The notes beneath the pieces are model-generated. The model saw only the letters and a list, made by a program, of their open reading frames with translations. It did not search any database and was not told the origin of the DNA. From Pseudanabaenaceae cyanobacterium (GTDB taxonomy: Bacteria > Cyanobacteriota > Cyanobacteriia > Pseudanabaenales > Pseudanabaenaceae): 38,182 nucleotides of DNA. Positions 4,292 through 23,615 of this stretch are shown one piece after another. Numbering within the stretch: the first letter of the stretch is position 1; each line of letters starts with the position of its first letter. Both the position numbers and the translations under genes were made by a program. The stretch covers positions 1 to 38,182 of the forward strand of contig JBIKNH010000012.1 in the NCBI GenBank assembly GCA_044358815.1, in the 5' to 3' direction.

Positions 4292-5017
4292 ATGGCTAAT
4301 GATCAACTAGCCCCCACTGATGCGCCCCAGTCCACCGTTGCTGAGGATGTGACCCTGAAGGATACCGGATCTGCCAGTGACGCGGCTGGTGTGGCTCCTG
4401 AAGTCCCTGAACCAAACCCTAAGCCAAATAATTCTGAGTCTGATAAACCTAAGGAGTCGGACAAGGGGGCAGAATCTGGAAGTAAACACCCTGCTAAGGA
4501 AATTCGTGGGTTGAGCCTAGGCTTATCACGATTAGTCCCATCATTTGAGCTACCCAAATTACCAAAGTTACCCAATTTACCCAAGTTAAAACTTAAACTG
4601 CCCTCATGGCGTGCCAGCCTCGTGCCGCTTTTGCTGCTGTTTATGGCGGTGGGCTATGTGGTGGTGAGTCGGCAATTTATTCTCCTGATTTACAAAAAAC
4701 GTACTTTAGCCATGAGTGGGATCACTATTTCCTTGGTCCTGCCCCTGGCTAATGCCTGCGCTGAATATAGCTTGATGCGTTGGGGCTATCTGATCAGCGG
4801 TGTGTTGATCATTGGGGGTTTGATTGTGATTACCAAAAGCCCCACCGACTGGATTTTGATCGCTTTGGTGACTTGGTTTGGGCTATTGGGTATGGTCATC
4901 AGTGGCGAAATTCTCACCAGTCAAAAGATCAAAATTTGGTTGGTGGTGATGTTACAAACTTTGATTGCCCTGGCTGCTACGGGGTTAGGGTGGTTTCTGG
5001 TGTGGCTGATGAGTTGA
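4292..5017 (+). CDS. hypothetical membrane protein with an acidic/Pro-rich N-terminal region and an imperfect P-K-L-P repeat tract
   Basis: ORF of 241 aa. The N-terminal ~110 aa are low complexity (PEVPEPNPKPNNSESDKPKESDK; PKLPKLPNLPKLKLKLP), followed by 4-5 hydrophobic helices. Its 3' end overlaps the convergent rbgA by about 40 nt. Confidence 0.5.
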   Translation: MANDQLAPTDAPQSTVAEDVTLKDTGSASDAAGVAPEVPEPNPKPNNSESDKPKESDKGAESGSKHPAKEIRGLSLGLSRLVPSFELPKLPKLPNLPKLKLKLPSWRASLVPLLLLFMAVGYVVVSRQFILLIYKKRTLAMSGITISLVLPLANACAEYSLMRWGYLISGVLIIGGLIVITKSPTDWILIALVTWFGLLGMVISGEILTSQKIKIWLVVMLQTLIALAATGLGWFLVWLMS

Positions 5018-5879
5018 CGGGGGGGATTTCCACTGAAATCTGGCTTGGTGGTGCTTCTAAGGCAATGGCTCCCAGTCGTCCTTTACGAAAATCATGCAAA
5101 ATCTGTCGCGCTGCCTTTTCTTGATCCCCTTGGTAAGTCTTGGTTTGGGCTAGTTGATGAATGTAATCAATACCGGTGGGCGCTAGGCTGACATCCAGGT
5201 GATAGCGGTCTTGATAATTAATGCCTTTTTCGTTGAATAGATCTAACATCGCCGCTGCAATTAGGACCGAATCATAGGAAGCCTGACCAATATCGTCACA
5301 AATGGCTAATCGTAAAGCGGCTTCTTGGTCATTGAGTAGGGGCGGGATTACCCCAGGGGTGTCTAGCAGTTCAATTTTTTCGGAGATGCGGACCCAGCGC
5401 AATTGACGGGTCACTCCGGGACGGTTGGCACTGGCGACGACTCGTTTATTCAGCAACCGATTAATCAAGGCTGATTTGCCAACATTCGGAAAACCAATCA
5501 CCACCGCTCGCACCGGACGCGGCAACATCCCCCGACCTTTCCGCCGTTGATTAATGTGTTCCCCAGCGATTTGGGTTGCTTTCATCACTTCATTAATGCC
5601 TTTGCCGGATTGGGCATCGGTAAAATAAGCCGCTTGATCATTGGCTTGGAACCAGTTTTGCCACCGCGCCCGCCATGATTCGGGGATCATATCCACCCGA
5701 TTACAGATCACCAGATGGGCTTTGCCATTAGTCCAGGTGGGCATTTTGGGGTGTTGACTAGAAGCAATGATGCGGGCATCTCTGACCTCTAACACCACAT
5801 CAACTAGTTTCAGTTGCTCAAGCAGTTGTTTTTCTGCCTTAGCAATGTGACCCGGATACCACTGAATTAAGGGAGCCAT
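4977..5879 (-). CDS. rbgA: ribosome biogenesis GTPase A (YlqF/RbgA family, circularly permuted GTPase)
   Basis: WYPGHIAKA at the N-terminus is the YlqF signature. Circularly permuted G motifs: NRVD (G4) precedes GFPNVGKS (G1) and DTPG (G3). Confidence 0.85.
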   Translation of the reverse strand: MAPLIQWYPGHIAKAEKQLLEQLKLVDVVLEVRDARIIASSQHPKMPTWTNGKAHLVICNRVDMIPESWRARWQNWFQANDQAAYFTDAQSGKGINEVMKATQIAGEHINQRRKGRGMLPRPVRAVVIGFPNVGKSALINRLLNKRVVASANRPGVTRQLRWVRISEKIELLDTPGVIPPLLNDQEAALRLAICDDIGQASYDSVLIAAAMLDLFNEKGINYQDRYHLDVSLAPTGIDYIHQLAQTKTYQGDQEKAARQILHDFRKGRLGAIALEAPPSQISVEIPPVNSSATPETTLTP

Positions 5880-6372
5880 AGGAAAAGAGCCTTAGTTGAA
5901 GAGCCGTAGTTTTTGGTGAAGAGGCAGGGGGATAGCGAGGCTGAGATTAACCCGAATTATCGTCAATACCAGCAAAGTTAGTATATACTCTTATTGTGTT
6001 ATTAAGAAATATTAAGAAAACCAATTTATCATCGATTGCTGTCAATGGCTAAAGATTCCTGAAAAATTGAATTCAGTAATCAGAGAAAGTAACTTCTCTA
6101 AAGCCTTGATCTTCCTACCTAAATAAACTTTAGTCCTGTATTTTATTCATCAACTTTTAGCTTATTTCTAACAAACTTTGACAAACCTCAGTAAACCTTC
6201 CCGAATATCTAATACTGCATCTCATTCGTCTGCTTAATTGACAAATTGCGAACTAATCAAACTATTAACTACACCAATGATTAAGCTCATAATTAATTAG
6301 CGATATTAGGTAGTACTCCATCAGGTAAAACTGTTTAAATTAATTCTCAAATAATTCTCAAAAATTTGTAAA

Positions 6373-7263: not shown

Positions 7264-7686
7264 ATTGAATTAAATTGAATTTGTGCTGTGGGTGCTGCGG
7301 TTTATCAAGCAGTCTCAGAAATAGAACCATAAAATTAGATATTGTATATATTGGTTCAAGACAGGTAAGGGAAGTAATTCTCTTGCCTATTTTTTTATAT
7401 TGATTGGGATTGATTAGGACTAATTTGGAATTGATTTTAATAGAAGTCTTACGGAAGATTTTAGAGACTGATCTCTAGACTTTCGACTGTTCTCACTTCG
7501 TAGTGATTTGCCATAGGTTTTGTTGCGAATTGCATAAAGGCATAAATCAGAAGGTGGTGCTAAATAGGACAGGGTGCTGAGTTCTTCCCGTAGCACTGTC
7601 TAGCCTTACTTCATCCTTTCCATCTTAGGACTACCCATTTTAGGACTACCAAATCGTGAACCTAATGAAGCTGAATTAGCGATATT

Positions 7687-8274
7687 TTAAGAATCGCGTG
7701 GTTTATCTGGGATGTTTATGCCATAGAGAAACATATGCAGAATTTCCAGAGGTGACATGGGTGGGCTATGGATCATAATATCGTCATTGCTGGGATGAAG
7801 ATGAAAGCGTATATCTCGCTGATCGTTGTTATGATCTGGCAGATTGAGATCGATTCTTAGAAAAGGAACTTTAGTTTCTCCTTCTCTTTGCGGGAACCTT
7901 ATTTCAAAGTCAAATCCTATAATTTGAGCAGGTTTACAAGTTTCATCTATAGTAATCGCAAAATCAAACCAGCAGCCATTATTTAGTTTGAAATGTGGGA
8001 CATGAAACTCTCGCTTTTGGTTTTTATCTCCACCCATAATTTCAGAATAGCCTTTTTGGGGAATTACAGATGATGGGCGTAACTTTAGCAGCTTGTTAAT
8101 TTGATCTAACCTATTAAGTACAATTCTTTCATCACTAGCCAATGTTAGACATTTCAGGATTTCTGCTCGTAAAATCTTGGCATTTTTTACGTTCAGTGAC
8201 GTATTGCTTAATGACCGCTCTTGAACATCAGCGCAAATTTTTTGCCAACTATTTTTGTCGCTCAAGCAAGTCAC
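7687..8274 (-). CDS. hypothetical protein (195 aa), third gene of the AT-rich operon
   Basis: Overlaps the preceding gene by 26 nt. Contains His/Asp-rich segments (FHVPHF, RIDLNLPDHNNDQRDIRFHLHPSNDD) that could coordinate metal. No recognised family. Low GC. Confidence 0.5.
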   Translation of the reverse strand: MTCLSDKNSWQKICADVQERSLSNTSLNVKNAKILRAEILKCLTLASDERIVLNRLDQINKLLKLRPSSVIPQKGYSEIMGGDKNQKREFHVPHFKLNNGCWFDFAITIDETCKPAQIIGFDFEIRFPQREGETKVPFLRIDLNLPDHNNDQRDIRFHLHPSNDDIMIHSPPMSPLEILHMFLYGINIPDKPRDS

Positions 8275-8845
8275 CTCGATTAAGTAAAATTAGCCATTCC
8301 CCATATTCTGGATCGGTTGGTAGTTGACGATTCTCAGCTAAAGCAATTACTTCGTCATTAGTTTTACCTGTCCATTCTTGTAGTGCAGCTAGGCGGCGAT
8401 CGCATTCTTCATCACTCAGTATTTCAGCATCTTTTTGTAAATAATATATTCTTGCACCCAACCAACTCAGAAAATTAGGAGCATTATGTATCATTAAATC
8501 ATTAGCTTGCTCAGAAATGACAAGTAATCCTCCTTTATTACCTTTATCTAATCGACTTCTCAAAGCATCAAATATTTTCCATTGGTTACTATCCCAATCA
8601 TCTAATTTCCATAGTAAAAAATATTCTTCTGATGCTTTACTAATTTGATTAATTAAATCTCTTGCTCCAGATTCACCAGAGATAGTAACTGTGATACATT
8701 CACTAAAAATTTCAATAGTATCTTGTAAGTCTGTAACTATCGATTCTATGTCACTAATATCAACAACAAGAACCATCCAGATATTTGCGTCTGGACGCGC
8801 TCTAATTCTTTGCAATAATTCATCTACAGAAAATAACTTAATCAT
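8249..8845 (-). CDS. hypothetical protein (198 aa), second gene of the AT-rich operon; possible small alpha/beta domain with acidic clusters (VVDISDIES, KLDDWD)
   Basis: Its start overlaps the upstream NTPase gene by 8 nt (ATG within 8838-8845), suggesting translational coupling. There are no TM segments and no recognised family. Low GC. Confidence 0.55.
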   Translation of the reverse strand: MIKLFSVDELLQRIRARPDANIWMVLVVDISDIESIVTDLQDTIEIFSECITVTISGESGARDLINQISKASEEYFLLWKLDDWDSNQWKIFDALRSRLDKGNKGGLLVISEQANDLMIHNAPNFLSWLGARIYYLQKDAEILSDEECDRRLAALQEWTGKTNDEVIALAENRQLPTDPEYGEWLILLNRGDLLERQK

Positions 8846-10043
8846 CTAAAACTCCAGTTACAATTTTATTCTCAATAACTGCAGCTATTGCAGGGTGAAC
8901 TATAAAACGTGGTTTAGGATAACGATATTCCAAGATGTGACCTGTGTGTAATAACTCCCAGTGCTCAGAATTGCTAGGAAAAAAAGAACTTCGGGCGAAT
9001 ATGCGAAGAATAGTCATCTCTGAAGCATTTAAGCCCATAAGTTTTAAACGAACAAAGGGTAAAATTGCTTGTTCAACATGCTGAGCTGTAATTCTATCAG
9101 CTCCATCTAAGTAAGCCTCCTCAATCGACATTTGAGAAATAGATATAAAATCTCGTAAAACCCCTCCTGAACATGATATTAACAGTGACCGTGCATCTGA
9201 AGTGAAAATGTTATCGGGATCTCTCACGCCCATAATATCAATAAAAAACTGTTTAGCTTCAACACTATCAAATACATCAAGATATGGTAGATATACTAAA
9301 AGCCCTTTAATGTTTTCTCTTAGCATTTGGGTTATTGCTACAGAACCCACGATAATTGAGCCAATTCCAGCAATTTCCCTAACCATTCTTGCATCATTTA
9401 AAGCGGATTCAAAAAATAGTTGTGGATCAGCTATTCTATCTAGTCCGTCAAAGAGGAAAACAATTTCTTTTGCAATTTTCTGTTTGACAGCTTCTTTCAA
9501 AGTAGATAAATCTTGCACAAGAGATTCTATGATTTTTTGTTTTTTGTTATTTAGCGATAGTATTCCTTGATAATCAAGAGAAATCTGCTCTTCCCACGGC
9601 TCTAAACTTTGCTCAGGCACATACACTACTGTTTCGCTATATCCATGAGCCACTTTTTCGATTCGTTTTTTACATTTTTCTAGTATGGTATTCTTCATAT
9701 CACCCAAGATATTTATTAACTCAAGTCCCGCAATAGCAATTAAAGCACCTGCCTGAAGATTAGAGATGTCAGTAAAAAGACTGACATCAACATAGATAGC
9801 TTGTATATCTTCCAGTTCATTTAACGCACTTTGAGTTAGCAAAAGTTGGGTGGTTTTACCTGCTCCAATACCACCCAAAAGAATCTTTATTGACGAAGGA
9901 TTTACCTCAATTCTTCTGGTAATCTCTCTAATAGGACTGTTTGGCAATTTAACATAAAATCCTCGCTCGACAGCACGCTGAGGATTGGAAGTACCTTCAA
10001 AAGCTGACATCAGCTTACGGAAAAACTTTAGGCGCTCAGACAT
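8838..10043 (-). CDS. P-loop NTPase, STAND/NACHT-like (Walker A GGIGAGKTT; Walker B VFLFDGLDR); first gene of a 3-gene AT-rich operon
   Basis: ORF of 401 aa. The GxGxGKTT P-loop follows FYVKLP...REITRRI, and the hhhhDGhD Walker B resembles the NACHT signature. The C-terminal ~120 aa look helical/winged-helix-like (MTILRIFARS). There are no repeat-type sensor domains. GC is markedly lower than the flanks. Confidence 0.7.
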   Translation of the reverse strand: MSERLKFFRKLMSAFEGTSNPQRAVERGFYVKLPNSPIREITRRIEVNPSSIKILLGGIGAGKTTQLLLTQSALNELEDIQAIYVDVSLFTDISNLQAGALIAIAGLELINILGDMKNTILEKCKKRIEKVAHGYSETVVYVPEQSLEPWEEQISLDYQGILSLNNKKQKIIESLVQDLSTLKEAVKQKIAKEIVFLFDGLDRIADPQLFFESALNDARMVREIAGIGSIIVGSVAITQMLRENIKGLLVYLPYLDVFDSVEAKQFFIDIMGVRDPDNIFTSDARSLLISCSGGVLRDFISISQMSIEEAYLDGADRITAQHVEQAILPFVRLKLMGLNASEMTILRIFARSSFFPSNSEHWELLHTGHILEYRYPKPRFIVHPAIAAVIENKIVTGVLDD

Positions 10044-10173
10044 GGCATTCTCAATCTAAATAAATGACGAGTTAGTACTTACATTCTAGCGGATGCGTTA
10101 GGATCTGCAAAGAAGCCAGATAAAGCCCTGCGCTAGAAATATGCTATTGCGATAAGATAATTGTTGCAAGCCA

Positions 10174-12519
10174 ATGATCGTCACTGCTTTAAATATGACC
10201 ACTGACACCGACAAGCGCCAGTTTTCCCCCGCACAACTTAAAGCCGAGGGACTCACCCCCGACGAATATCAAATGATTTGCGACCGCTTGGGACGGGAAC
10301 CCAATCGCGCTGAGTTGGGTATGTTCGGCGTGATGTGGTCGGAACATTGCTGTTACAAAAACTCCCGCCCCCTCCTAGGGCAATTTCCCACCAAAGGCGA
10401 GCGAATCTTAGTCGGACCTGGCGAAAACGCTGGCGTAGTCAAGATTACCGATGATCTTGCCATCAGTTTCAAAATTGAAAGCCATAACCGCCCCTCAGCA
10501 GTAGAACCCTATCAAGGAGCCGCAACTGGAGTCGGTGGCATTTTGCGCGATATTTTCACCATGGGAGCGCGACCCGTGGCGTTACTCAATGCTTTACGTT
10601 TTGGCGAACTGTCTGATCCTTGGGTCCGGAGCCGCGTGCGGGGCATCGTCGATGGCATCGCTGGTTATGGTAATTGCGTCGGCGTGCCCACCATCGGCGG
10701 TGAAGTTTACTTCGATAAATCCTACAATCGCAATCCTTTGGTTAATGCAATGGCAATCGGGATTATGGAAACTCCCGAAATCGTCAAAGCTGGAGCGGTT
10801 GGGGTCGGTAATCCAGTGGTTTATGTCGGTTCCACAACGGGGCGCGATGGCATGAAAGGCGCGAGTTTTGCCAGTGCTGAACTGTCTGCTAAATCTGAAC
10901 AGGATCGCCCAGCAGTGCAAGTGGGAGATCCATTTTTAGAGAAGTCATTAATCGAAGCCTGTTTAGAAGCTTTTAAATCAGGGGCAGTGGGAGCCGCCCA
11001 AGACATGGGAGCCGCTGGCTTGACATGTTCCACTTCCGAAATGGCAGCTAAAGGGAATGTGGGAATTATTTTAGATCTCGATAAAATCCCCGCACGGGAA
11101 ACGGGTATGGTTCCCTATGAATATTTGCTTTCTGAATCCCAAGAGCGGATGCTTTTCGTGGCTCATAAAGGACAAGAACAAGATCTGATTGCGATTTTTG
11201 AACGCTGGGGTTTACATGGCGTAGTGGCAGGAGAAGTCATTGCTGAGCCAATTGTACGGATTCTCTGGCATGGGGAAACTGCCGCCGAAATTCCCGCCAC
11301 AGCCTTGGCAGACAATACACCAATTTATCACCGCACCCTCGGACCAGTACCAGAATATGCGCAAAAAGCTTGGGCTTGGAACGAAGCCGAAACCTTAGGG
11401 AATCTTCAAGTATCCCCCCAAGATGCTTTCCTGACATTGCTAGATACTCCTTCCATTGCGTCTAAGGCGTGGGTCTATCGCCAATATGATCATCAAGTAC
11501 AGAACAATACGGTGGTATTTCCTGGGGGAGCCGATGCCGCAGTGATTCGGATTCGTAAACAAGATTTTGGCATTGGTAATTTAGAACCTAATCAGTTCGC
11601 TAATACCAGAGCTTTAGACAATTCCATTGGTGTAGCGGCAACCGTAGACTGTAATGCCCGTCTGGTTTATCTCGATCCCTACGAAGGTGCAAAACTGGCT
11701 GTAGCTGAAGCTGCTCGGAATCTTTCCTGTGTGGGTGCGGAACCTTTAGCCGTAACCGATAATCTCAATTTCGGCAGTCCCGAACATAGCATCGGTTATT
11801 GGCAACTGCACGAAGCCTGTCGCGGTATTGCCGACGCTTGCCGTGAATTAGCCACCCCAGTTACTGGCGGTAATGTTTCTCTCTATAACGAAACGATTCA
11901 GAGCGATGGCACCAGTAGCCCGATTTATCCTACCCCTGTGATTGGCATGGTGGGGTTAGTGCCTGACGTGACGAAGGTTTGCGGACAGGGTTTCAGAGGC
12001 GTAGGGGATGCCATTTACTTAATTGGTGGCGATGCAGTGAGTTTGGCTGGTTCCGAATACCTAGCGACAATTCTTGAAACCGTAGCTGGTAAACCTGTGG
12101 CAGTGGATTTGAATCTAGAGAAGACTGTCCAAGCCGCAAACCGTTATGGAGTAGCCCACGATTGGCTCAGATCTGCCCATGACTGCGCTGAAGGTGGTTT
12201 GACGGTGGCGGTGGCAGAGTCGGCAATCGCTGGTGGTCTCAGTGCTGTGATTGATTTAGCGAATCCTCAGGAACAACATCTCACCGTGCTGTTATTTGGC
12301 GAAGGTCCGAGTCGAATTGTGGTAAGCGTTGCGCCTGAAAACGTGGCAGCTTGGGAAGCTTATCTAACAAGTCAAGAAGTTCCAGTACAAAAAATTGGTG
12401 CGGTGGCAGCGGCAGATCAAGATTTCACCATTAAGGTGGCGGGTGAAACCTTGATTAATGCGCCATTACAGCAACTGATTGATACTTATAACCAGGCAAT
12501 TCCTCGCCGCATGGTTTAG
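10174..12519 (+). CDS. purL: phosphoribosylformylglycinamidine synthase subunit PurL
   Basis: Conserved small-PurL N-terminus ([40 protein letters not shown]) and paired AIRS/AIRS_C domains; 781 aa is close to the typical ~740 aa. The true start may be the ATG at 10195 (MTTDTDK). Confidence 0.9.
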
Positions 12520-12922: not shown

Positions 12923-15900
12923 ATGGAAAAACGGCATCTTATATTATCCGATCATGTTTCTCCAGAAGACTGGGACAATACACCCAGTAATGTTCGGCAT
13001 CTGGTTAATACGCTATTAGCAAGTGCGGTTTTATCAGACAATGAAAGCTATCTGGCACGGTTCCTAGATGCGACCCTCATCGGTATTGCGATTCATCGGT
13101 CAAACGGACAGTTAGTTTACATCAACAGTGTGGGACAATCTCTTCTAGGCACAAATCACTATCCAGAAACTAGTCCGAATCTTTTACCAGAATTTTTTCA
13201 AATATATCGCGCTGGTACTAACGAACTTTATCCAATTGAAAATTTACCCAGTAATCGTGCTCTGCGGGGAGAAACGATTCAAGTTAGTGATTTGGAAGTA
13301 CATCGTCTTGATCGCGTCGTGCCTTTAGAAGTATCAGCGACACCTGTTTTTAATCCACAGGGACAGGTGGTTTATGTCATCGCTACTTTTCGGGATATTA
13401 GCGAACGTCATCAAGCTGATGCAGCATTACAAAAAAGCGAACTCAAAATCATTAATTTAACTAATGCAATACCAGGGGCAGTTTTCCAATTTCAACTCAC
13501 GCCAGCAGGTGAATTAACCATGCCATTTGTGAGTCAGGGGCTTCGGGAACTGGCGGAGGTTTCACCACAACAGGTGGTCTATGATATACAGGTTTTTGCG
13601 AATTTAATCTTACTCGAAGATTGGCAAGCTATCAAACAAACCCTTGCTATTTCAGCGGAGACATTGCAGCCTTGGCATTTGGAATTTCAGATTCAAACTG
13701 GAAACCAAGGGCTGAAGTGGATCTTAGGTCAAGCAATGCCCCGTCATGAACCAGATGGCATAATTATTTGGAATGGAATTTTGACGGACATTAGTGATCG
13801 TAAACGTAGGGAAGTTGAACATCAGGAAGCGGAATTAGCTTTACAGCAAAGCGAAGATCGTTTTAGGGAAATGGCAGCGAATATCTCTGGCGCAATTTTC
13901 CGGTATCAACTTCGTCCCGATGGTTCTAAAGCAATTTTGTATATGAGTCCTGGATGCTATAGGATTTGGGAAGTTCCAGCAGAAATACTTGAAAAAGATG
14001 CCACTGTGCTATGTCAGATGGTCGATCCCCAAGATCAACTGATGCTACAAGAGTCAATTATAGAATCAGCCCAAACTCTTCAACCTTGGTCTTCAGCATG
14101 GCGCATTATTACACCATCAGGTTGTCATAAATGGCTAGAGGCTTCGGGTCGTCCTGAAAAGCAACCTAATGGCGAAGTTATTTGGGATGTGTTGGTTTTG
14201 GATGTGAGTGACCGTAAGTTCGCAGAGGAGCGGATTAGGGAACAACAAACCCAACTGGATTTAGTTGTGGAATCATCCCAAATTGGTTTCTATATCCATG
14301 ATCTGCGAAGTGGAACTTCTGTAGTTTCTTCGATCTATAAAACTCAACTGGGCTACCCGCCGGATGCTATAGAACCCTCGGCTAATGATTGGCAGGATCG
14401 CTTACATCCTGAGGATCGGCAGAGGGTGATCGCTGCGTTTGAAGCATTTCAGAATAGGGAATCTGTCTATAATGAGGATTTTCGGTTACTCCATCGCAAT
14501 GGTAGCTATCGGTGGATTCACAGCAACGCTCAGCTAATTTGTGATGAAATGGGAATGCCGATCAAGATAGTTGGTACTCATATTGATATTACTGATCGCA
14601 AAAAAATTGAAGAAAATTTGCGCCAAGCGATGGCAACCAATCAAGCCTTAATCAATACCCTGCCGGACTTGATTGTGCGCATTAGTCGAGAGGGAATTTA
14701 TCTAGATGCTATACCATCGGAAAGTGTGAAACTAGTAGTACCCCGCGATCAAATGATTGGCAAACGAATTCTAGATGTGCTACCCATAGAATTTGCTAGA
14801 CAGCGGATGTATTATGTAGAAAAAGCTTTTGAGACTGGTGAATTACAGATTCATGAATACGAAATCTTGATCGATAATGAAATCTGTTACGAAGAGTCGC
14901 GGATTGTTGTTAGTGGTGATAATGAAGTTATGAGTTTGATTCGTGATATTAGTGATCGCAAAAGAGCAGAAATATCTTTACGGCAGAGTGAATCACGGTA
15001 TCGGCTGTTAGCGGAAAACATTAATGATCTAGTTTGTTTGCATGATCCTGATGGTCGTTATATCTATGTCAGTCCCTCTTGCCAAACCCTTTTAGGCTAT
15101 CACTATGATGAAATGCTTGGCAAAAATCCTGAGATTTACTGTCATCCTGATGATCGCGAACGTGTACACCATGAATCCCTTACCGCAGCGAGTGTAGGGA
15201 AAGCTATCCCAATTACCTATCGAGTGCGCCAGAAGTCTGGTGATTATATCTGGTTTGAGACTTTAACCACGCCAATTATGGATGATCAGGGGCAGATAGT
15301 ACAACTACAAACCACTTCCCGAGATGTTACAGAACGGATTCAGGTGCAAAATCAATTAGAACATGAGGCGCTCCATGATGCATTGACGGGACTTCCCAAT
15401 CGGAATCTCTTAATGGAACGGTTAGAACTATCGATTCACCGCGCCAAACGCATTGATGATTATCGGTTTGCGGTGCTGTTTCTTGACCTGGATCGGTTCA
15501 AGGTAATCAATGATAGTTTAGGACATTTGCAGGGTGATCAGTTACTGATTGCCGTTGCCCAAAAGCTTCAATTTATTCTGCGAGATATTGACCTTGTGGC
15601 GCGGTTAGGCGGTGATGAATTTGTGATTCTCTTAGATGAAATTAAAGATGTCCAGGACGCGATTCACGCCACCCAGAGAATTTTTGCGACATTACAAACA
15701 CCAATGACCATTCAAGGTCGGGAAGTTTATACCACCTGTAGCATTGGTATTGTTGTGGGTACAAACAAATATACCCAAGCCTCTGACTTACTGCGGGATG
15801 CTGATACGGCAATGTATCGCGCTAAAAACAGTGGTAAAGCCCGATACGAAATCTTTGATGCCCAAATGCATCAGGAAGCTCTGAGACGGATGCATTTAGA

Positions 15901-16681
15901 GAATGATCTACGGCGAGCGATTGATTGCGAAGAGTTTGTCCTCCATTATCAGCCAATTATTTGTTTGAACAGTGGTAGCCTGGTGGGGTTTGAGGCTTTG
16001 ATGCGTTGGCAACATCCCACCCAAGGTTTGAAATCCCCTGGGGACTTTATCCCAGTGGCTGAAGAAATTGGATTGATTACATCCCTCAGTGCTTGGGCAC
16101 TACGCACAGCTTGTCAGCAGTTGACTAACTGGCAAATTGCTTTCTCTAATCTGCCCATTCTCAAAATGAGTGTGAATCTCTCGGTACAAGATCTCCGACG
16201 ACCGGATCTAGTGGCAGAAATTGATCTGATCCTCGCCCAAACTAAATTAGATGCTTGTTGCCTCACTCTAGAAATTACTGAGAGTATGTTAATTGAAGAT
16301 ATTGAGTCGATCACCGGACTGCTCACAGAGTTAAAAAGACGCGGCATTCAATTGAGTCTTGATGATTTTGGTACGGGATATTCATCATTGAGTTATCTGC
16401 ATCAGTTGCCAATGGATAATTTGAAGATCGATCAGTCTTTTGTGAACCGAATGCAGGAAGGAAAAAAGAATTATCAGATTGTGGAAACCATTGCCACCCT
16501 CAGTAGACAATTGGAACTTGATGCCATTGCGGAGGGCATTGAAACTTCCCAACAACTAGAGAGACTCAAAGCCTTAGGATATAAGTTTGGGCAAGGGTAT
16601 TTGTTTTCTCAGCCCCTCAGTGGGGAGACCATAGAAACACTTCTAGGACATCGTGATTTAGAGCATTTTGTGACGGTATGA
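12923..16681 (+). CDS. multi-PAS sensor diguanylate cyclase/phosphodiesterase (PAS x ~6-7, GGDEF, EAL)
   Basis: GGDEF motif in RLGGDEFVILL preceded by LHDALTGLPNR; the EAL domain has EALMRW and the DDFGTGYSSLSYL motif. The repeated PAS-type blocks are each preceded by DISDRK- or DITDRK-like linkers. Confidence 0.85.
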   Translation: MEKRHLILSDHVSPEDWDNTPSNVRHLVNTLLASAVLSDNESYLARFLDATLIGIAIHRSNGQLVYINSVGQSLLGTNHYPETSPNLLPEFFQIYRAGTNELYPIENLPSNRALRGETIQVSDLEVHRLDRVVPLEVSATPVFNPQGQVVYVIATFRDISERHQADAALQKSELKIINLTNAIPGAVFQFQLTPAGELTMPFVSQGLRELAEVSPQQVVYDIQVFANLILLEDWQAIKQTLAISAETLQPWHLEFQIQTGNQGLKWILGQAMPRHEPDGIIIWNGILTDISDRKRREVEHQEAELALQQSEDRFREMAANISGAIFRYQLRPDGSKAILYMSPGCYRIWEVPAEILEKDATVLCQMVDPQDQLMLQESIIESAQTLQPWSSAWRIITPSGCHKWLEASGRPEKQPNGEVIWDVLVLDVSDRKFAEERIREQQTQLDLVVESSQIGFYIHDLRSGTSVVSSIYKTQLGYPPDAIEPSANDWQDRLHPEDRQRVIAAFEAFQNRESVYNEDFRLLHRNGSYRWIHSNAQLICDEMGMPIKIVGTHIDITDRKKIEENLRQAMATNQALINTLPDLIVRISREGIYLDAIPSESVKLVVPRDQMIGKRILDVLPIEFARQRMYYVEKAFETGELQIHEYEILIDNEICYEESRIVVSGDNEVMSLIRDISDRKRAEISLRQSESRYRLLAENINDLVCLHDPDGRYIYVSPSCQTLLGYHYDEMLGKNPEIYCHPDDRERVHHESLTAASVGKAIPITYRVRQKSGDYIWFETLTTPIMDDQGQIVQLQTTSRDVTERIQVQNQLEHEALHDALTGLPNRNLLMERLELSIHRAKRIDDYRFAVLFLDLDRFKVINDSLGHLQGDQLLIAVAQKLQFILRDIDLVARLGGDEFVILLDEIKDVQDAIHATQRIFATLQTPMTIQGREVYTTCSIGIVVGTNKYTQASDLLRDADTAMYRAKNSGKARYEIFDAQMHQEALRRMHLENDLRRAIDCEEFVLHYQPIICLNSGSLVGFEALMRWQHPTQGLKSPGDFIPVAEEIGLITSLSAWALRTACQQLTNWQIAFSNLPILKMSVNLSVQDLRRPDLVAEIDLILAQTKLDACCLTLEITESMLIEDIESITGLLTELKRRGIQLSLDDFGTGYSSLSYLHQLPMDNLKIDQSFVNRMQEGKKNYQIVETIATLSRQLELDAIAEGIETSQQLERLKALGYKFGQGYLFSQPLSGETIETLLGHRDLEHFVTV

Positions 16682-17378: not shown

Positions 17379-20300
17379 ATGTTTAATCCTATTGCTGCAC
17401 TAACTGACTTAGACGTAAAACTAGCAATTATTCGGCATCCTTTGATGCTGCCCCCAGAAACCTTGGTTACTGATGCAATTGCGGCGATGAATCGTCATCG
17501 GGTGACTGGAATCTCAAATACTGGGACAGATCATTCTAGTTCTAGTCAACTGAAGCAACTCCATAACTCTCAACAGGATCTACAGGATCTACACCTTGAA
17601 ACCCACTTTAGCTGTGTCTTAGTGACCGAAGCATCTCGTTTAGTTGGGATTTTCAGTAGACGGGATATGGTGCGTTTAATTGCCCAGCAATATGCTCTGG
17701 AAAGATTACGTTTAGCAGATGTGATGATCCGTAAGGTCATCTCTCTACCGGAAATAGAATTTACGAATGTATTCGTAGCTACGGGATTATTACAGAAATA
17801 TCGGATTCGTAATTTACCCACCGTTGATGCTGACGGCAGAATTACGGGAATTATTACCCATGAGAGCCTCTGCCAAATTGCGCGACCTGTGGATTTGTTG
17901 CGGGTGCGTCAAGTGCAGGAGGTCATGACCAGTCCCGTAGTGTGGACCCGACCTGAGGCGACTATTTTAGAAGTTACCCGATTGATGCATCAACATCGCG
18001 TGAGTTCGGTGGTGATTGCACAGCCTGATTTAAGAACTGATTTAAGAACTGATTCAGGGACTGACTTAGAGAATAATCTAGAGACTGATTCTACAACTAC
18101 TGATCAGATAACTGACCAGATAACCAACCAGGTAAATAATAAACCAAATCATAGTTGTTCTTCTATTAAACCCATAGGAATTATTACGGAAAGAGATTTA
18201 GTCCAGTTTCATGCCCTTGGTTTAGCGGTGGAGGAGTATAACGCCGCCCAGATCATGAGTAGTCCAGTTTTTACGATCTTACCGGAAGAACATCTCTGGA
18301 ATGCCCAGCAGATTATGACACAACGGATGATCCGATCTGTAATTGTGGTGGATCAACAGCATAATCTCCAGGGTATTATTACCCATACCAGTTTATTGCG
18401 AGTATTAGATCCTACGGAACTTTATAAATTAGCCGAGGTTCTAGAAACCAGAGTTAATCAATTGGAATCGGAAAAAGTTAGAATTCTGGCACAGCGTACC
18501 GAAGATCTAGAACGAGAAGTTCAAGAACGGACCCATAAACTAGAGCTTACCCTAAAACGAGAAAAAATCATTAATCGGGTAGCCCAAAGGATTCGTAATT
18601 CCCTAGATCTCCATGAAATTTTAAATGCCTGCGTTATGGAAGTGCAGCGCTTTTTAGACTGTGATCGGGTGATTGTTTATCAGTGCGGGTGTGATCGTAG
18701 TGGTGTAGTGATTGCAGAGTCCGGCAACCCAAATTTTGACAGTCTTTTGGGAATTGATATTCCAGATAATTACTGTGAGAAGGAAACCATAGAGTTAATG
18801 AATGACGATGGAGCAGAGGCTGCCAATGGGCAAGTCATCGTGGATGATATTGATTCTGGCGCTTATCCACAGGAACAAATTGCATTCTTTAATCGGTATC
18901 AAGTTAAAGCCGGTCTGATGACACCGATCCGGCTAGATGGCAAGCTATGGGGGTTATTAGCAGCGCAGCAATGCCAATCTAGCCGTCAATGGTATTCCGA
19001 TGAAGCCGAGTTATTAAGTGCTTTGGCGGTGCAGTTGTCGATTGGGATTCGGCAATCCATCGCTTATACTGAAATGGAACAACAAGTCACCGAATCAAGA
19101 CTATGGCGCAAGCGCTACGAAGCCGCCGCCAGTAGCAGTGGGCAACTGATTTATGAATATGATCATCGTACAGGAAAAATCATTTGGGGAGCGGGTGTTC
19201 AGGAGACTTTAGGTTATAAACCGGAAGATGCTCCGTCGGATTTCCCATCTTATTGGCGTATCGTTCACCCTGACGATTTACCTCAGGTAGAAGCACTAGT
19301 GGAAGTATGTATTGACCTTAAAACTGTTTTTCATTACCAATATCGAGTATTACATCAGAGGGGAGAATATATTTGGGTTGAAGAACGGGGACAATGGCTG
19401 ACTGATCCCAATGGAGAAGCATATATCGTGGTGGGGATGGTGTCTGATATTACCCAACGGAAGTTAGTGGAGCAATCCCTGAAAACACAACGAGATTTTA
19501 GCCAGCTTATTGCGCAGATTACCAGCCGATTTGTGCATATCACATTGGCAGAACTAGACTCAGAAATCAATCGCAGTTTGCTGCTAATTGGTGGTGCAAT
19601 GGAGGCTGATACAAGCTTCCTTTACCGTTTAGATGATGCTAAAAGTACTCAGACCATGACCCACGAATGGACTAGAGATGGCTACTCTAGCAGGATGCAG
19701 CTAAATCAGCACCTACCCCTAGGAATCTGTCCTTGGTTCCAAAATTTAATTGCGGAACGCAAAACTTGCTATATACCGGACATAGACCATGCTCCCAACG
19801 ATGCAGCAGTAACAGTGGCACAGTGGCGCAGACTAGAACTAAAATCGATTCTGTTAGTTCCTTTATTACAACAAAATCAGGTGATTGGCTATATTGGCTG
19901 CGGTTCTTTGAGTACGCCGACATATTGGGAAGAGGAAGTGATTAACTTAGTCACGGTAATGGGACAGTCCATTGTGAATGCCCAAGAAAGACTGATTAAC
20001 CGTCAAGAACTAGAAACCCTCAATCATTCCCTAGAAGCAGAAATAGCCAGAAGAATTGATGAATTTCAACAGATTTATAGTCTACAGCAAGCCATTCTCA
20101 ATAGTTTTGATTATGCGATTATTTCAACGGATATCAACGGCATCATTCGGACATTCAATGCTGGCGCTGAAAACTTTTTAGGTTATAGCGCTAGTGAAGT
20201 GATTGGCAAAATGACTCCTGTAGTGTTTTACGATCCTCAAGAAGTCCAAGATCATGCCAACTACCTATCGGCAAAACTAGGGCGGTCTGTGAGTCCTGAT

Positions 20301-23300
20301 GTAACAGTTTTTACGATTGAGGGGGCAGAGGAATGTTCCGAAAAAGAATGGACTAACATTCGCAAAGATGGCACAAAATTTCCCATGCGTGCATCCATTT
20401 CTCCCCTTAAGGATATGGATGATCAGGTGATCGGCTTTGTCAGTATTGGTAGGGATATAACAGAAAAGAAACAAATTGCAGAGGCACTAGAAAAAAGTAA
20501 AAATCTGTTCCGGCAATTGTTTGACGCTAATGTAGTAGGCGTAATGTTTACGGACTTTAGCGGGGCAATTACCGATGCTAACGATTACTTTCTCAATTTA
20601 ATTGGTTATACCAGAGAAGAACTGATAAATGGGCAAATTAATTGGGAAGCTCTGACACCCCTAGCCCATCGCCACAAGGATATAGAAGCTATTAATCAGT
20701 TACAACTCCATCGTGCCGTTGTCCCTTGGGAGAAAGTCTACTACAATAAACAGGGTCACGAAGTACCAATTTTAATTGGGGTGGCACTCCTAGAAGATGA
20801 TGATGATCGTGGGAGTTGTATCTGTCTCATAATTGATATTACAGAACAAAAACGTTCAGAGCAACAACTCCGAGAAACCCAACAGTTTATTACGACGATT
20901 ATTAACACCATTCCTTTACCGATATTTTGGAAAGATCGACAGGGGAAGTTTTTGGGATGCAATCGTTTCTTAGTGGAACTCTTAGAGTTATCAAGTCCTA
21001 GTGAAATCATTGGTAAAACTGATGCAGAGCTTTCTCTAAATATAGAACAACTGGATGATCTCCACACGAATGATCAGATGGTGCTTAACTCAGGCACTAT
21101 GTTTTTAAGGATTCCTGAAATCCTGACACTACCGAATAACCAAAAGCGCTATATAGAAACCCATAAAGCACCACTGCGGAATTCCCACGGTGAGATTATT
21201 GGTTTAGTTGGTACATTTCAAGACATAACCCAGCGTAAAACCGACGAAGAACTATTACGGTTGAGTGAAGAGTCTTTCCGTAATGCCTTCGATAATACCA
21301 CCGTTGGCATGTGTCTTGTCTTAACCTCTGGTCATTTCCTGAGGGTTAATCAAGCATTTGCGAATTTAATAGGTTACGAACCATCACAAATGCAAAACAT
21401 GACATTCCGTGATATTACCCATCCGGATGACTTGGCTATGGATATAAAGTCAAGGGAGCAGGTTTTAAGTGGCGAAATTTCTAGCTATCATGTGGAAAAG
21501 CGTTATATTACTAAGTCTGGCAAACTAGTTTGGGGGCTATTGAGTTTATCCTTAGTCAGAGACTTAACGAATCAACCACTGTATTTTGTGACGCAAATCC
21601 AAGACATTACAGAACGGAAACAAGCCTTAGTCAAATTGCAGGCTAGCGAAAGCCGATTCCGCCAAATTTTTGAATCTAAGGTAGTGGGGATGGTATTAGC
21701 TGACTTCCAGGGCAATATCATTAATGCCAATGATCGTTTCTTAGAAATCCTAGGATATACCAGAAGAGAATTTGTTGAAAATGAGATTCGTTGGGATTTT
21801 ATTACGCCGCAGGAACATCAAGAAATGGATTTAACTTCCATGAGACACCTGCGAGAACACGGCATGATTACCCCTTGGGAAAAGGAATACTATCGCAAAG
21901 ACGGTACTAGAGTTCCTATTTTAATAGGAGCAGCACTGTTACCCAATAGCGAAGATCAAACGGTCTGCGTGGTCATCGACATTAGTGATCGTAAAGCCGT
22001 AGAACGAGCACTCCAGAACAGTGAGGAGCGATTCCGGCAGTTAGCTCAGGCTATTGATGCCGTCTTCTGGATTATGAGTTTAGATCGCAAGTCATGGGTC
22101 TATGTCAGTCCTGCTTACGAAAAAATCTGGGGTCGTAAATATATCAATCTCTATACTGGTACAGATCATTGGCTCGATACCGTCCACCCCGAGGATCGCG
22201 ACCGAGTGCGGGCGGCACTGCCCCAGCAAATTAGCGGCGATTTCAATCAGGAATATCGGATTATCCGTCCTGGGGGCGAGATTCGTTGGATTCATGATCG
22301 CGCCTTTCCGATGCAAGGTGAGAGTTCGCAAGTATATCTGATTGCTGGCATTGCTGAAGATATTACGGTGCGCAAGGTTTGGGAATCGCAATTACAATAT
22401 ACTAATGCCCAACTTGCCCGCGCCACCCGCCTCAAAGACGAATTTCTCGCCAGTATGAGCCATGAATTGCGCACTCCCTTAAATGCAATTCTCGGCATGG
22501 CGGAAGGTTTGCAGGAGCACGTCTTTGGCGAACTAAATGATAGACAAATGAAATCAATTCAAACCATTGAACGTAGTGGCACCCACCTACTGGCTTTAAT
22601 CAATGACATTCTTGATTTATCAAAAGTCGAATCTGGTCAAGTACAATTATCACTGACTTCTAATGCTGTGCCACTGCTAGTGCAAAGCGGTTTAACTTTC
22701 ATTCAACAACAAGCGCGTAAAAAACGGATTGAGATTACCACAAGAATACCGCCTCAATTACCTTATGTTGAAGTAGATCAATTACGAATTCATCAGGTTC
22801 TGATTAATCTCTTAAACAATGCAGTTAAATTCACCCCAGAAGGGGGCAAGATTACTGTTACAGTGGATTATCCCTGTCCTCCGTTACCACCACTGAGAAA
22901 TATCGATATTGAAGATCTGGCATCTCGCAAGGGAAATTTCATTCGCATTTCCATCATTGATACTGGAATCGGTATCGCTCCGGAGAATATTAATAAATTA
23001 TTTCAGCCATTTGTCCAGATTGACAGCGCCCTGAATCGGCAGTATGAAGGTACGGGGTTAGGATTAGCTCTGGTCAAACGTTTAGTAGAATTACACAATG
23101 GTCAAATTAATGTGAGTAGTGAAGTGGGACGAGGGAGTTGTTTCACATTTGATTTACCTGCTTCTCCAGATACCGCCGCCCCCAATGCTGCCATCGAGGA
23201 ATTACCAGTTCCCCCCCCTTCGGATATTACAGGCACACCCAAGGTTGTTTTGTTAGTGGAAGACAATGCCATGACCGTTAGTACGATATCGAGTTATCTC

Positions 23301-23615
23301 AAAGCCAAAGGTTACCAAATTATTTTGGCTAGTAACGGTTTAGAAGCCTTAGAAGTAGCCGAAAAAGATAGTCCAGATATTATTTTGATGGATATTCAGA
23401 TGCCCGGCATGGATGGTTTAGAAGCAATTCAACGAATTAGAGCCAACCCACTACTACAAAAAATGCCTATAATTGCACTGACAGCCCTAGCCATGAGTGG
23501 CGATCAAGATCGATGTTTAGCTGCCGGAGCCAACGAATATATGAGCAAACCTGTTAAAATGAAGGAATTAGTTAATGTTATAGAGAGGACTTTCGACAAT
23601 GCCTATGTCCACTAA
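17379..23615 (+). CDS. giant hybrid sensor histidine kinase (CBS pairs, GAF, multiple PAS/PAC, HisKA, HATPase_c, receiver)
   Basis: 2078 aa. The N-terminal CBS-like segments are interrupted by an acidic low-complexity insert (DLRTDLRTDSGTDLENNLETDSTTTDQITDQITNQ). GAF-like region (LLAAQQCQSSRQWYSDE). H-box SHELRTPLNAILGMAE. N/G boxes LNNAVKFTPEGGKI, DTGIGI, GTGLGLALVKRL. C-terminal receiver (VLLVEDN...DIQMPGMDGLE). Confidence 0.85.
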   Translation: MFNPIAALTDLDVKLAIIRHPLMLPPETLVTDAIAAMNRHRVTGISNTGTDHSSSSQLKQLHNSQQDLQDLHLETHFSCVLVTEASRLVGIFSRRDMVRLIAQQYALERLRLADVMIRKVISLPEIEFTNVFVATGLLQKYRIRNLPTVDADGRITGIITHESLCQIARPVDLLRVRQVQEVMTSPVVWTRPEATILEVTRLMHQHRVSSVVIAQPDLRTDLRTDSGTDLENNLETDSTTTDQITDQITNQVNNKPNHSCSSIKPIGIITERDLVQFHALGLAVEEYNAAQIMSSPVFTILPEEHLWNAQQIMTQRMIRSVIVVDQQHNLQGIITHTSLLRVLDPTELYKLAEVLETRVNQLESEKVRILAQRTEDLEREVQERTHKLELTLKREKIINRVAQRIRNSLDLHEILNACVMEVQRFLDCDRVIVYQCGCDRSGVVIAESGNPNFDSLLGIDIPDNYCEKETIELMNDDGAEAANGQVIVDDIDSGAYPQEQIAFFNRYQVKAGLMTPIRLDGKLWGLLAAQQCQSSRQWYSDEAELLSALAVQLSIGIRQSIAYTEMEQQVTESRLWRKRYEAAASSSGQLIYEYDHRTGKIIWGAGVQETLGYKPEDAPSDFPSYWRIVHPDDLPQVEALVEVCIDLKTVFHYQYRVLHQRGEYIWVEERGQWLTDPNGEAYIVVGMVSDITQRKLVEQSLKTQRDFSQLIAQITSRFVHITLAELDSEINRSLLLIGGAMEADTSFLYRLDDAKSTQTMTHEWTRDGYSSRMQLNQHLPLGICPWFQNLIAERKTCYIPDIDHAPNDAAVTVAQWRRLELKSILLVPLLQQNQVIGYIGCGSLSTPTYWEEEVINLVTVMGQSIVNAQERLINRQELETLNHSLEAEIARRIDEFQQIYSLQQAILNSFDYAIISTDINGIIRTFNAGAENFLGYSASEVIGKMTPVVFYDPQEVQDHANYLSAKLGRSVSPDVTVFTIEGAEECSEKEWTNIRKDGTKFPMRASISPLKDMDDQVIGFVSIGRDITEKKQIAEALEKSKNLFRQLFDANVVGVMFTDFSGAITDANDYFLNLIGYTREELINGQINWEALTPLAHRHKDIEAINQLQLHRAVVPWEKVYYNKQGHEVPILIGVALLEDDDDRGSCICLIIDITEQKRSEQQLRETQQFITTIINTIPLPIFWKDRQGKFLGCNRFLVELLELSSPSEIIGKTDAELSLNIEQLDDLHTNDQMVLNSGTMFLRIPEILTLPNNQKRYIETHKAPLRNSHGEIIGLVGTFQDITQRKTDEELLRLSEESFRNAFDNTTVGMCLVLTSGHFLRVNQAFANLIGYEPSQMQNMTFRDITHPDDLAMDIKSREQVLSGEISSYHVEKRYITKSGKLVWGLLSLSLVRDLTNQPLYFVTQIQDITERKQALVKLQASESRFRQIFESKVVGMVLADFQGNIINANDRFLEILGYTRREFVENEIRWDFITPQEHQEMDLTSMRHLREHGMITPWEKEYYRKDGTRVPILIGAALLPNSEDQTVCVVIDISDRKAVERALQNSEERFRQLAQAIDAVFWIMSLDRKSWVYVSPAYEKIWGRKYINLYTGTDHWLDTVHPEDRDRVRAALPQQISGDFNQEYRIIRPGGEIRWIHDRAFPMQGESSQVYLIAGIAEDITVRKVWESQLQYTNAQLARATRLKDEFLASMSHELRTPLNAILGMAEGLQEHVFGELNDRQMKSIQTIERSGTHLLALINDILDLSKVESGQVQLSLTSNAVPLLVQSGLTFIQQQARKKRIEITTRIPPQLPYVEVDQLRIHQVLINLLNNAVKFTPEGGKITVTVDYPCPPLPPLRNIDIEDLASRKGNFIRISIIDTGIGIAPENINKLFQPFVQIDSALNRQYEGTGLGLALVKRLVELHNGQINVSSEVGRGSCFTFDLPASPDTAAPNAAIEELPVPPPSDITGTPKVVLLVEDNAMTVSTISSYLKAKGYQIILASNGLEALEVAEKDSPDIILMDIQMPGMDGLEAIQRIRANPLLQKMPIIALTALAMSGDQDRCLAAGANEYMSKPVKMKELVNVIERTFDNAYVH

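Follow-up and report, generated by a model that had tools for sequence, protein, structure and literature searches.

Is a block of AT-rich genes lodged among the housekeeping genes of a cyanobacterium the trace of a recent arrival, and if it is not, what sort of system do these genes encode? The question is raised by a window of 38,182 nucleotides (nt), the whole of the stretch of DNA analysed here (contig JBIKNH010000012.1 of the Pseudanabaenaceae cyanobacterium assembly GCA_044358815.1, positions 1 to 38,182), in which three genes, here called A, B and C, lie side by side on the minus strand next to purL. A first-pass annotation, made from the sequence alone, had seen in positions 7264-10173 an island inserted between a TPM gene and purL, encoding a nucleoside triphosphatase (NTPase) and two small proteins, and had taken it for a horizontally acquired anti-phage defence or abortive-infection module. 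We find that A, B and C are one evolutionary unit and that their alleles are exchanged horizontally and recombine within genes, and we put the probability at about one half that the trio is a new, undescribed NTPase-centred conflict module (immune or abortive-infection-like), autonomous and horizontally exchanged. This reading draws on the indivisibility of the operon, on horizontal and intragenic exchange, on a swappable hypervariable element in the NTPase, on AT-richness, on repeated loss and on presence in scattered phyla, and it would imply, by inference, an anti-phage role.

Architecture and distribution of the cassette

Gene A (8838..10043, minus strand; 197 homologues) is an open reading frame (ORF) of 401 amino acids, gene B (8249..8845, minus) one of 198, and gene C (7687..8274, minus) one of 195 with a GTG start, or of 192 if the alternative TTG start, which is the NCBI call, is used. 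The stop of A and the start of B have the octamer ATGATTAA in common (8 nt), and C begins inside the last codons of B, with an overlap of 26 nt from the GTG start and of 17 nt from the NCBI TTG start. On the other side, purL (10174..12519, plus strand) is divergent from gene A across a spacer of 130 bp (10044..10173). This spacer holds a promoter-like site on the cassette strand, a sigma-70-like TTTGCA-17-TAGAAT at 10111..10083 (minus), found in a consensus scan whose hits were overall not above shuffle expectation, and among purL-linked loci it is conserved at about the level of purL itself (62-75% between the window and locus L008, 96-100% between loci L010 and L021). The coordinates agree with the first-pass description of three minus-strand genes with 8-nt and 26-nt overlaps, divergent from purL over a 130-bp region, and the compact operon that it proposed is supported, co-translation being probable in view of the overlaps.

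The same trio is found far outside the window. One genome per species was scanned with a profile of C, which gave 61 loci, all of them cyanobacterial, with Pseudanabaena, Nostocales, Oscillatoriales, Snowella, Crocosphaera, Chamaesiphon, Acaryochloris and Pleurocapsa among the carriers; in about 50 of these 61 species-level loci, A, B and C stand in the same order and on the same strand, as abutting or overlapping genes. For a more distant sample, ten clusters of C with 24-36% identity to the C of the window were chosen, and contigs were obtained for seven. All seven, at 56-74% guanine plus cytosine (GC), carry a cassette encoding proteins of about 400, 150-200 and 213-239 amino acids, the C of locus L073 being longer (379). 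In these distant loci A is recognised at E-values of 1e-55 to 1e-85 and B at 1e-13 to 1e-35, except in L101, where a B-sized ORF has no match to the B profile. The neighbours of the cassette in one distant locus cluster with proteins of a Byssovorax (Myxococcota) metagenome-assembled genome, and the high-GC carriers of the module are probably Myxococcota. In locus L072, on a contig of 63% GC, a gene for a 421-amino-acid integrase-like protein with a weak Phage_integrase match (L072:1477-2742) lies about 2.5 kb upstream of a distant cassette, and it is the only recombinase seen near any copy.

Composition, position and the exchange of alleles

The abrupt shift in composition reported in the first-pass annotation is real: a 60-nt sample inside the cassette (8701-8760) has 26.7% GC and a 60-nt sample of purL, 400 bp past the edge, 55%. 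Taken as a whole the cassette has 36.2% GC, purL 50.3%, the TPM gene 44.8% and the window 43.9%, and A, B and C are the three lowest-GC ORFs of the 23 in the window (0.34-0.38 vs 0.427-0.503), about 4.5 standard deviations under the flank mean. The reading of this shift as a sign of acquisition does not hold, however, since the cassette lies under its flanks in 49 of 49 loci, hosts of 63–74% GC included, with a mean difference of 7.4 points. GC at third codon positions (GC3) is lower too, by 10-18 points in most loci, and in the four loci of 63-74% GC tested the cassette is 4-9 points under the flanks. Low GC is thus a constant trait of the family, and that of the window is no evidence of recent arrival; the purL-linked locus may serve as a warning that low GC alone is no sign of recent insertion.

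The position of the cassette tells a similar story. The divergent purL-ABC arrangement occurs in the window and in seven other genomes, species-level as well as metagenome assemblies, and their purL shares 76-78% identity with that of the window. Other members of Pseudanabaena use two further cassette sites, which makes three within the genus, and fixed sites are also found in each of Nostocales, Oscillatoriales, Snowella and Calothrix. In loci with a relative of the TPM gene (61-79% identity), the GTPase gene is retained upstream of it and the downstream neighbour is a different one; neither purL nor the cassette was found within 7 kb downstream, and no empty site with the TPM gene and purL adjoining was seen in the sampled data. 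Since these relatives never have purL downstream, an empty-site comparison cannot show insertion, and the TPM side is to be seen as a synteny break. The cassette travels with purL, and the break falls in the convergent 3' spacer of 423 bp between C and the TPM gene (7264..7686), which is non-coding, with no ORF of 60 amino acids or more and no Rfam match, and which has a terminator-like hairpin at 7363-7388. This spacer lies outside the operon, so that an island drawn from 7264 begins too early, and with purL-ABC recurring in seven other genomes and no empty site at hand, the proposed insertion between the TPM gene and purL has to be given up. About 40 nt downstream of the C stop codon there is a tandem 15-nt duplication, CCATCTTAGGACTAC / CCATTTTAGGACTAC (window 7620-7649), where similarity to other purL-linked loci ends.

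The alleles themselves do not follow purL. Among purL-linked Pseudanabaena loci purL is 90-97% identical, whereas A (60-86%), B (62-96%) and C (64-92%) fall into discordant classes; in one example purL is 97% identical but A, B and C are only 64, 62 and 67% identical. In DNA identity between the window and L008, purL stands at 75-80% and the middle of A at 31-45%, and there is a rise at the A/B boundary to 85-96%, which extends over B and C; between the window and the other purL-linked loci similarity drops to background directly after the C stop codon. Other pairs of loci have intragenic breakpoints near codon 100 of A and inside C. Synonymous divergence (dS) between the window and L008, which belong to different genera, is 2.07 for purL, 0.38 for B and 0.31 for C, i.e. 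5-7 times lower in B and C, and this points to a recent import of B-C. Between L010 and L021, both Pseudanabaena, it is 0.39 for purL and 0.66-1.11 for the cassette genes, and here the high values point to replacement by old alleles. The best explanation is that in the window the module has long resided at a polymorphic locus linked to purL instead of having been freshly inserted, and that recombination with an allele of Pseudanabaena type has recently replaced its B-C half. Of the horizontal acquisition first proposed, then, exchange stands, on the evidence of dS, mosaic alleles and decay, and a private recent insertion does not. Similarly, the conserved synteny next to purL that the first-pass annotation had named as an argument against its own proposal is indeed seen, but the housekeeping-like codon usage named with it is not, nor do the alleles follow the host. 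Whatever the module does, its purL-linked locus shows neatly, in a natural setting, how alleles can be swapped gene by gene and recombine within genes while the adjacent housekeeping gene hardly varies.

Purifying selection acts on A, B and C alike: the ratio of nonsynonymous to synonymous rates (omega) is 0.06-0.40 over the three, which indicates that they are functional genes. The cassette is also subject to decay. Several loci have a split C or have lost B, and remnants consist of C alone (L053 and L057) or of A with a C fragment (L061 and L066). Deletion in place can be seen in two pairs of relatives with the same flanking order, L031 and L057 (Nodularia) and L063 and L064 (Snowella/Merismopediaceae), in each of which one member keeps a C fragment only.

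Genes that are exchanged in this manner may also be the cargo or machinery of a mobile element that inserted next to purL, for instance an AAA+ regulator like TnsC or IstB. Such an origin would fit the horizontal exchange and the AT-rich composition, TnsC is one of the many AAA+ proteins that B resembles in fold (see below), and one distant copy is found about 2.5 kb from an integrase. We nonetheless regard it as highly improbable. The window has no tRNA, integrase or transposase genes, no terminal inverted repeats, no target-site duplication and no meaningful flanking repeats, the top neighbour families of the cassette include neither integrase nor transposase, homology between loci starts and stops at the cassette's own gene boundaries, and the viral and plasmid collections searched contained no copies.

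The three proteins

Protein A consists of conserved N-terminal helices, an NTPase core, a lid-like SGGVLRD motif and a conserved C-terminal region, ILEYRYP...VHP. In its Walker A motif or P-loop, GGIGAGKTT (amino acids 57-65; 9849..9875, minus), G57, G58, G60, G62, K63, T64 and T65 are invariant in 45 sequences, and in its Walker B motif, FLFDGLDR (196-203; 9435..9458, minus), L201, D202 and R203 never vary and D199 hardly does, the general form hhhDGLDR being present in high-GC homologues as well. The first product is thus a P-loop NTPase of 401 amino acids, as originally annotated. The SGGVLRD motif (292-298; 9150..9170, minus), with S, G, G, V, R and D unchanged from phylum to phylum, is probably a lid or sensor-2-like motif: this region has weak Cdc6_lid and AAA_lid_2 matches in distant homologues, weak alignments to clamp-loader lids and a sub-threshold likeness to ORC-CDC6-like proteins, and we infer a sensor-2 role for its Arg. 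The invariance across phyla of all three elements, Walker A, Walker B and a lid-type motif with an Arg, speaks for AAA+ membership.

In contrast, the label "STAND/NACHT-like" of the first-pass annotation is too specific. The A of the window scores 13.1 bits against NACHT (cut-off 26.7) and 13.2 against nSTAND_NTPase5 (cut-off 34), and of 45 family members only three touch NACHT, and one NB-ARC, at E<=0.01. The steady weak matches across these members are to ATPase_2 (37/45), KAP (20/45), AAA_22 (17/45) and AAA_16 (7/45), with E=1e-6 for the best family member against Pfam. For the A of the window they remain under the Pfam gathering thresholds (ATPase_2, PF01637, 19.7 bits vs 33.2; KAP, PF07693, 13.3 vs 20), and the likeness to the ATPase_2/KAP group is therefore one of consistent direction, sub-threshold and at the level of the superfamily. 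With 401 amino acids, no repeat region and a variable element that is internal, A is also unlike the usual STAND order of nucleotide-binding domain, helical domain and winged helix with C-terminal repeats or sensor. Profiles of A, B and C gave nothing significant against PDB sequences; for a profile of the A core with the insert deleted, the best match was the nucleotide-binding domain of SeAvs7 (9N00) at E=0.016, with clamp-loader lids at E of about 0.6. Judged by its sequence, A is a divergent AAA+/STAND-like P-loop NTPase and not a NACHT member.

The variable element in question is a hypervariable insert between Walker A and Walker B (106-195; 9459..9728, minus), delimited by column entropy, identity and omega. 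Column entropy is 1.75-2.85 bits there vs 0.4-0.7 in the N-terminal region, the indels extend to 67 amino acids, nucleotide identity is 31-48% between genomes whose purL is 75-100% identical, and omega is 0.21-0.53 vs 0.08-0.14 in the N-terminus of A (0.19-0.40 for the whole gene). We propose that this insert is the specificity determinant of A. Two other interpretations were rejected. KAP NTPases have transmembrane helices inserted in the P-loop domain; the insert of A is charged and helical and has no hydrophobic span on inspection of the sequences (no dedicated transmembrane predictor was used), and the KAP score is sub-threshold. As for diversification by a diversity-generating retroelement, the window contains no direct repeat of 9459-9728, the indels reach the length mentioned above, and no reverse transcriptase was found among the scanned genes of the window.

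Protein B, in which the first-pass annotation could place no motifs, turns out by structure comparison to have an AAA+ fold with a five-stranded alpha/beta core, with Cdc6/Orc1, the RFC small subunit and the DnaX complex among the top matches. An alignment of 40 sequences contains no P-loop, and according to the structural model B is a degenerate (pseudo-) AAA+ domain without a P-loop, followed by conserved C-terminal helices. Nowhere in the module is conservation stronger than in the C-terminal motif LPTDPEYGEWLILLNRGDLL (175-194; 8264..8323, minus), whose coding sequence overlaps with the beginning of gene C: L175, P176, E180, E183, W184, L185, I186, L187, L188, R190, G191 and L193 are invariant, and the consensus LPxDPEYxEWLxLLxRGDL is kept in homologues of 63-74% GC. 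Model confidence in this motif is low (predicted local distance difference test, pLDDT, 51-58), which would be compatible with folding on a partner. Short variants of B of 151-153 amino acids, in a 56% GC subgroup (L101:210-671 and L103:1437-1892), are without the LPxDPEYxEW...RGDL helices, so that the motif is not universally required. The possibility that B is a paralogue of A was rejected, as profile comparison by hhalign detected no relation.

Homologues of B in many genomes of Pseudanabaena, Tumidithrix and Lusitaniella (P0129, P0131, P0133, P0142, P0164 and others) bear the NCBI name "ABC transporter permease", apparently a wrong annotation that has been passed on; in no scan did B match an ABC or permease model, and inspection of the sequence revealed no obvious hydrophobic segment. 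In Limnofasciculus baicalensis BBK-W-15 the C-terminus of A runs straight into the N-terminus of B in a single frame of 610 codons (L028:6179-8008). This is either a natural fusion or a frameshift error of the draft assembly and, coming from one such assembly, it may be taken as a Rosetta-stone hint that A and B are physically associated.

Clamp loaders and ORC/Cdc6 initiators are AAA+ assemblies that mix active and inactive subunits, and the insert of A is located where initiators have their initiator-specific motif, i.e. between Walker A and Walker B. One may consider, then, whether the trio has a resident cellular function, for example as a vertically inherited AAA+ loader or remodeller, associated with DNA or the chromosome and with a dead subunit, for which the purL linkage and the low GC would be incidental. 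The fold matches of B, its standing as a dead AAA+ domain, as seen in delta' of clamp loaders and in some ORC subunits, and the weak Cdc6_lid, ORC-CDC6-like and clamp-loader lid similarity of A all agree with such a function, as do the purifying selection on all three genes, the positions that are stable within lineages (purL-ABC in eight genomes of at least two genus-level groups) and the lack of mobile-element hallmarks in the window. We consider it distinctly unlikely all the same, because three different sites are used within Pseudanabaena alone, copies have been lost or have decayed in close relatives while the flanks are unchanged (L031 vs L057; L063 vs L064), the cassette genes are far more or far less similar than the adjacent purL, GC3 is so much lower than in the flanks of most loci, and presence is scattered over cyanobacteria and high-GC phyla, with one copy beside an integrase. 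Unlike clamp loaders and ORC, moreover, the trio has no significant sequence membership in these families and no replication context, it is patchy and horizontally exchanged, and its third component, C, has no counterpart there.

Protein C has no fold or family match, in agreement with the earlier failure to place any motif in it, and no deaminase fold. Its model, with a pLDDT of 82 and a predicted template modelling score (pTM) of 0.81, consists of three N-terminal helices, an antiparallel sheet and a C-terminal helix (alpha+beta). An alignment of 68 sequences at 24-50% identity delimits a conserved polar core (138-179; 7738..7863, minus), FLRIDLNLPDHNNDQRDIRFHLHPSNDD...PPMSPLEIL, in which R140, H158 and H160 are invariant and D142, N144, N150, R156, P175 and E177 are at least 90% conserved (signature RxDxN…HxN…RxHxHP). 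In the cyanobacterial subfamily H94, D104, E124, R126, H148 and D165 are also invariant, with D164 and H169 at least 90% conserved. This signature, rich in His, Arg, Asp and Asn, suggests a metal- or phosphate-binding site, and C is our proposed effector. An exhaustive HMMER search returned at least 290 clusters of C at 50% identity, nearly all of them stand-alone proteins of about 170-240 amino acids. The only long member among the 150 best clusters is the 379-amino-acid homologue in L073 (5693-6832, 74% GC), which has a C-terminal extension of about 190 amino acids without a Pfam match at E<=0.01.

A candidate conflict module, its rivals and its relatives

If the trio is a conflict module, it could operate as follows. 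A, B and C would be produced in fixed proportion from one transcript, their overlapping genes being translationally coupled. Active A and dead AAA+-fold B would assemble into a hetero-oligomeric switch, much as active and inactive subunits do in clamp loaders and ORC; the predicted fold of B and its missing P-loop are the basis for this, and the A-B fusion in a single draft assembly is consistent with contact between the two. The insert of A, hypervariable and swapped between alleles, would then provide the specificity surface for an invader-derived cue, and a nucleotide-dependent rearrangement would release or activate C. The invariant Arg/His/His/Asp/Asn pocket of C might act on a phosphate-containing or metal-dependent substrate, most plausibly nucleic acid or nucleotide, with the outcome that the invader or the infected cell is stopped.

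One may go further and see in the trio an unrecognised class of immune or recognition system, in which a mixed ring or spiral, built from an active AAA+ sensor and a dead, paralogue-like AAA+ subunit, gates an effector of new fold, specificity resides in the recombining, cassette-like insert, and balancing selection maintains divergent alleles at one fixed chromosomal locus; this we hold to be possible but tentative. Under such a scheme there could be a formal likeness to the polymorphic het/NLR allorecognition loci of fungi, and a preference for filamentous or social bacteria (cyanobacteria, Myxococcota).

Several observations weigh against a conflict module. Nothing scored over cut-off in Pfam, NCBIfam, PADLOC or PHROGs for A, B, C or their distant homologues, and no component is homologous to a validated defence protein. 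PADLOC-DB v2, the 2023 release, covers the systems named up to then, including RADAR, Zorya and the PDC candidates; it gave no match for A and C and a chance-level CARF match for B (E=0.023), and for distant homologues there was P-loop noise to PifA, PtuA and PDC-S20 at E>0.002. This bears out the earlier statement that the proteins could not be assigned to Septu, PARIS, Gabija, Lamassu, Hachiman, AVAST or another named system, and it completes the PADLOC part of the DefenseFinder/PADLOC check suggested with it, which was run on all three proteins and found no system. The literature, searched by locus tag and topic, contained no description of the A-B-C trio, although very recent naming is possible. 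No phage or plasmid copies were found when IMG/VR was scanned with B and C and PLSDB was searched by tblastn with A and C. Among 128 non-redundant neighbours within three genes of the cassette about 3-5, as a raw count, are defence-like (a DpdE/ZorD-type helicase, a DrmMI/type IIG enzyme, a PD-DExK protein and an RT_UG19-like protein), no clear enrichment in defence genes; the rest are mostly ordinary, such as kinases, HEAT proteins and PAS/GAF proteins, and in the window itself the cassette adjoins housekeeping genes. Within a lineage the cassette keeps its chromosomal site (purL in eight genomes; fixed sites in Nostocales and Oscillatoriales), as resident genes do more typically than mobile islands. 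Finally, the chemistry assigned to C is a guess from residue types. The copy that lies beside an integrase, on the other hand, counts in favour of a conflict module.

Certain neighbours do recur. Uma2-family genes (with a putative restriction-endonuclease fold) stand directly beside the cassette in L006 (6947-7549), L007, L011, L015, L017 and L069 (8869-9483), and in P. biceps such a gene separates purL from A. DUF29 genes and a zeta-toxin/AAA_33-like kinase are repeatedly found nearby (L003-L005, L012, L022). All these families are abundant in cyanobacteria and common in regions rich in toxin-antitoxin genes, and the adjacency may reflect chance.

The recurrent Uma2, DUF29 and zeta-toxin-like kinase genes do, however, fit another possibility, namely that the cassette is a selfish addiction module, a three-part system resembling toxin-antitoxin pairs in which C is a toxin checked by B and/or A and which persists because its loss is harmful, with no dedicated anti-phage role. 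Compact overlapping genes, horizontal exchange with allele replacement, low GC everywhere and a patchy presence with decayed copies would all be expected of such a module, and the polar core of C would suit a toxin of the enzyme type. Still, the loci that retain C alone (L053, L057) or A with a C fragment (L061, L066) misfit a simple decay in which the toxin must go first, and a pure addiction module would seldom be expected to contain an NTPase of 400 amino acids with a hypervariable insert, a protein better suited to sensing. We think it rather unlikely that addiction is the whole explanation, though it overlaps with the conflict module that we favour, since many toxin-antitoxin systems act in defence.

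Among known systems, the favoured conflict module would by analogy work most like Avs/STAND sensors. Avs proteins are single polypeptides of about 1000-2000 amino acids with a fused effector and repeat or sensor domains. In Avs/AVAST proteins (SeAvs7, PDB 9N00) as in A, the P-loop NTPase core is succeeded by a lid-like region and by C-terminal ones of helical or winged-helix-like type, the latter putative in A, and Avs/AVAST proteins resemble the module in diversifying evolution and horizontal transfer. In contrast to them, A has 401 amino acids and no fused effector or repeat/sensor domains, its variable element lies inside the NTPase domain, the putative effector C and the dead AAA+ protein B are encoded separately, and no PADLOC Avs model matches. 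RADAR is made up of the RdrA ATPase and the RdrB adenosine deaminase. Affinity to RdrA-type ATPases is seen in both A and B, but RdrA is twice as large as A, there is neither an RdrB-like deaminase nor a PADLOC RADAR match, and C is without a deaminase fold. A further parallel is offered by the MoxR-vWA ternary conflict systems, which have an inactive STAND protein (iSTAND) as third component and for which enrichment in cyanobacteria, myxobacteria and also actinobacteria has been reported (Kaur et al., eLife 2020, PMC7159879). They share with A-B-C a three-component, NTPase-centred organisation, the pairing of an active AAA+ protein with a dead NTPase-fold protein, and a similar spread (PMC7159879); A-B-C differs in having no MoxR-type ATPase, vWA domain or effector-associated domains, and its dead subunit is a bare AAA+ core of 150-200 amino acids. 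Identity with MoxR-vWA/iSTAND systems was rejected, there being no MoxR or vWA match in A, B, C or their distant homologues.

If the trio is a defence or conflict system, it would add an unnamed and fairly widespread family (C alone forming at least 290 clusters at 50% identity) with unusual features, a dead AAA+ partner and an effector whose fold and signature match nothing solved. Little of cyanobacterial immunity has been charted so far. The module is present in bloom-forming Pseudanabaena, Dolichospermum, Nodularia and Planktothrix and, if it has the proposed role, could matter for phage–host dynamics and for phage-based bloom control. A-B-C is at the least a well-defined, widespread and testable candidate with two unusual components.

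For the rest, the window is made up of common housekeeping and signalling genes, among them gpsA, an argB-type kinase gene, a YlqF-type GTPase gene, the TPM gene, genes for a PAS-GGDEF-EAL protein and a hybrid histidine kinase, and folP. The intergenic region between the divergent YlqF-type GTPase and TPM genes (5880-6372, 493 bp) has a GC content of 0.29-0.31, below that of the cassette, and a GC skew of -0.28 to -0.39, with no Rfam match in 5800-6372. A 241-amino-acid ORF without a Pfam match (4292-5017) has a convergent overlap of 41 nt with the 3' end of the GTPase gene (4977-5879). Just downstream of purL lies a large signalling cluster, in which the 1252-amino-acid PAS-GGDEF-EAL protein (12923-16681) precedes the hybrid sensor kinase of 2078 amino acids (CBS, GAF, multiple PAS, HisKA, HATPase and receiver domains); the latter overlaps by 17 nt with a receiver-histidine kinase gene downstream of it (23599-24786), the two together spanning 17379-24786.

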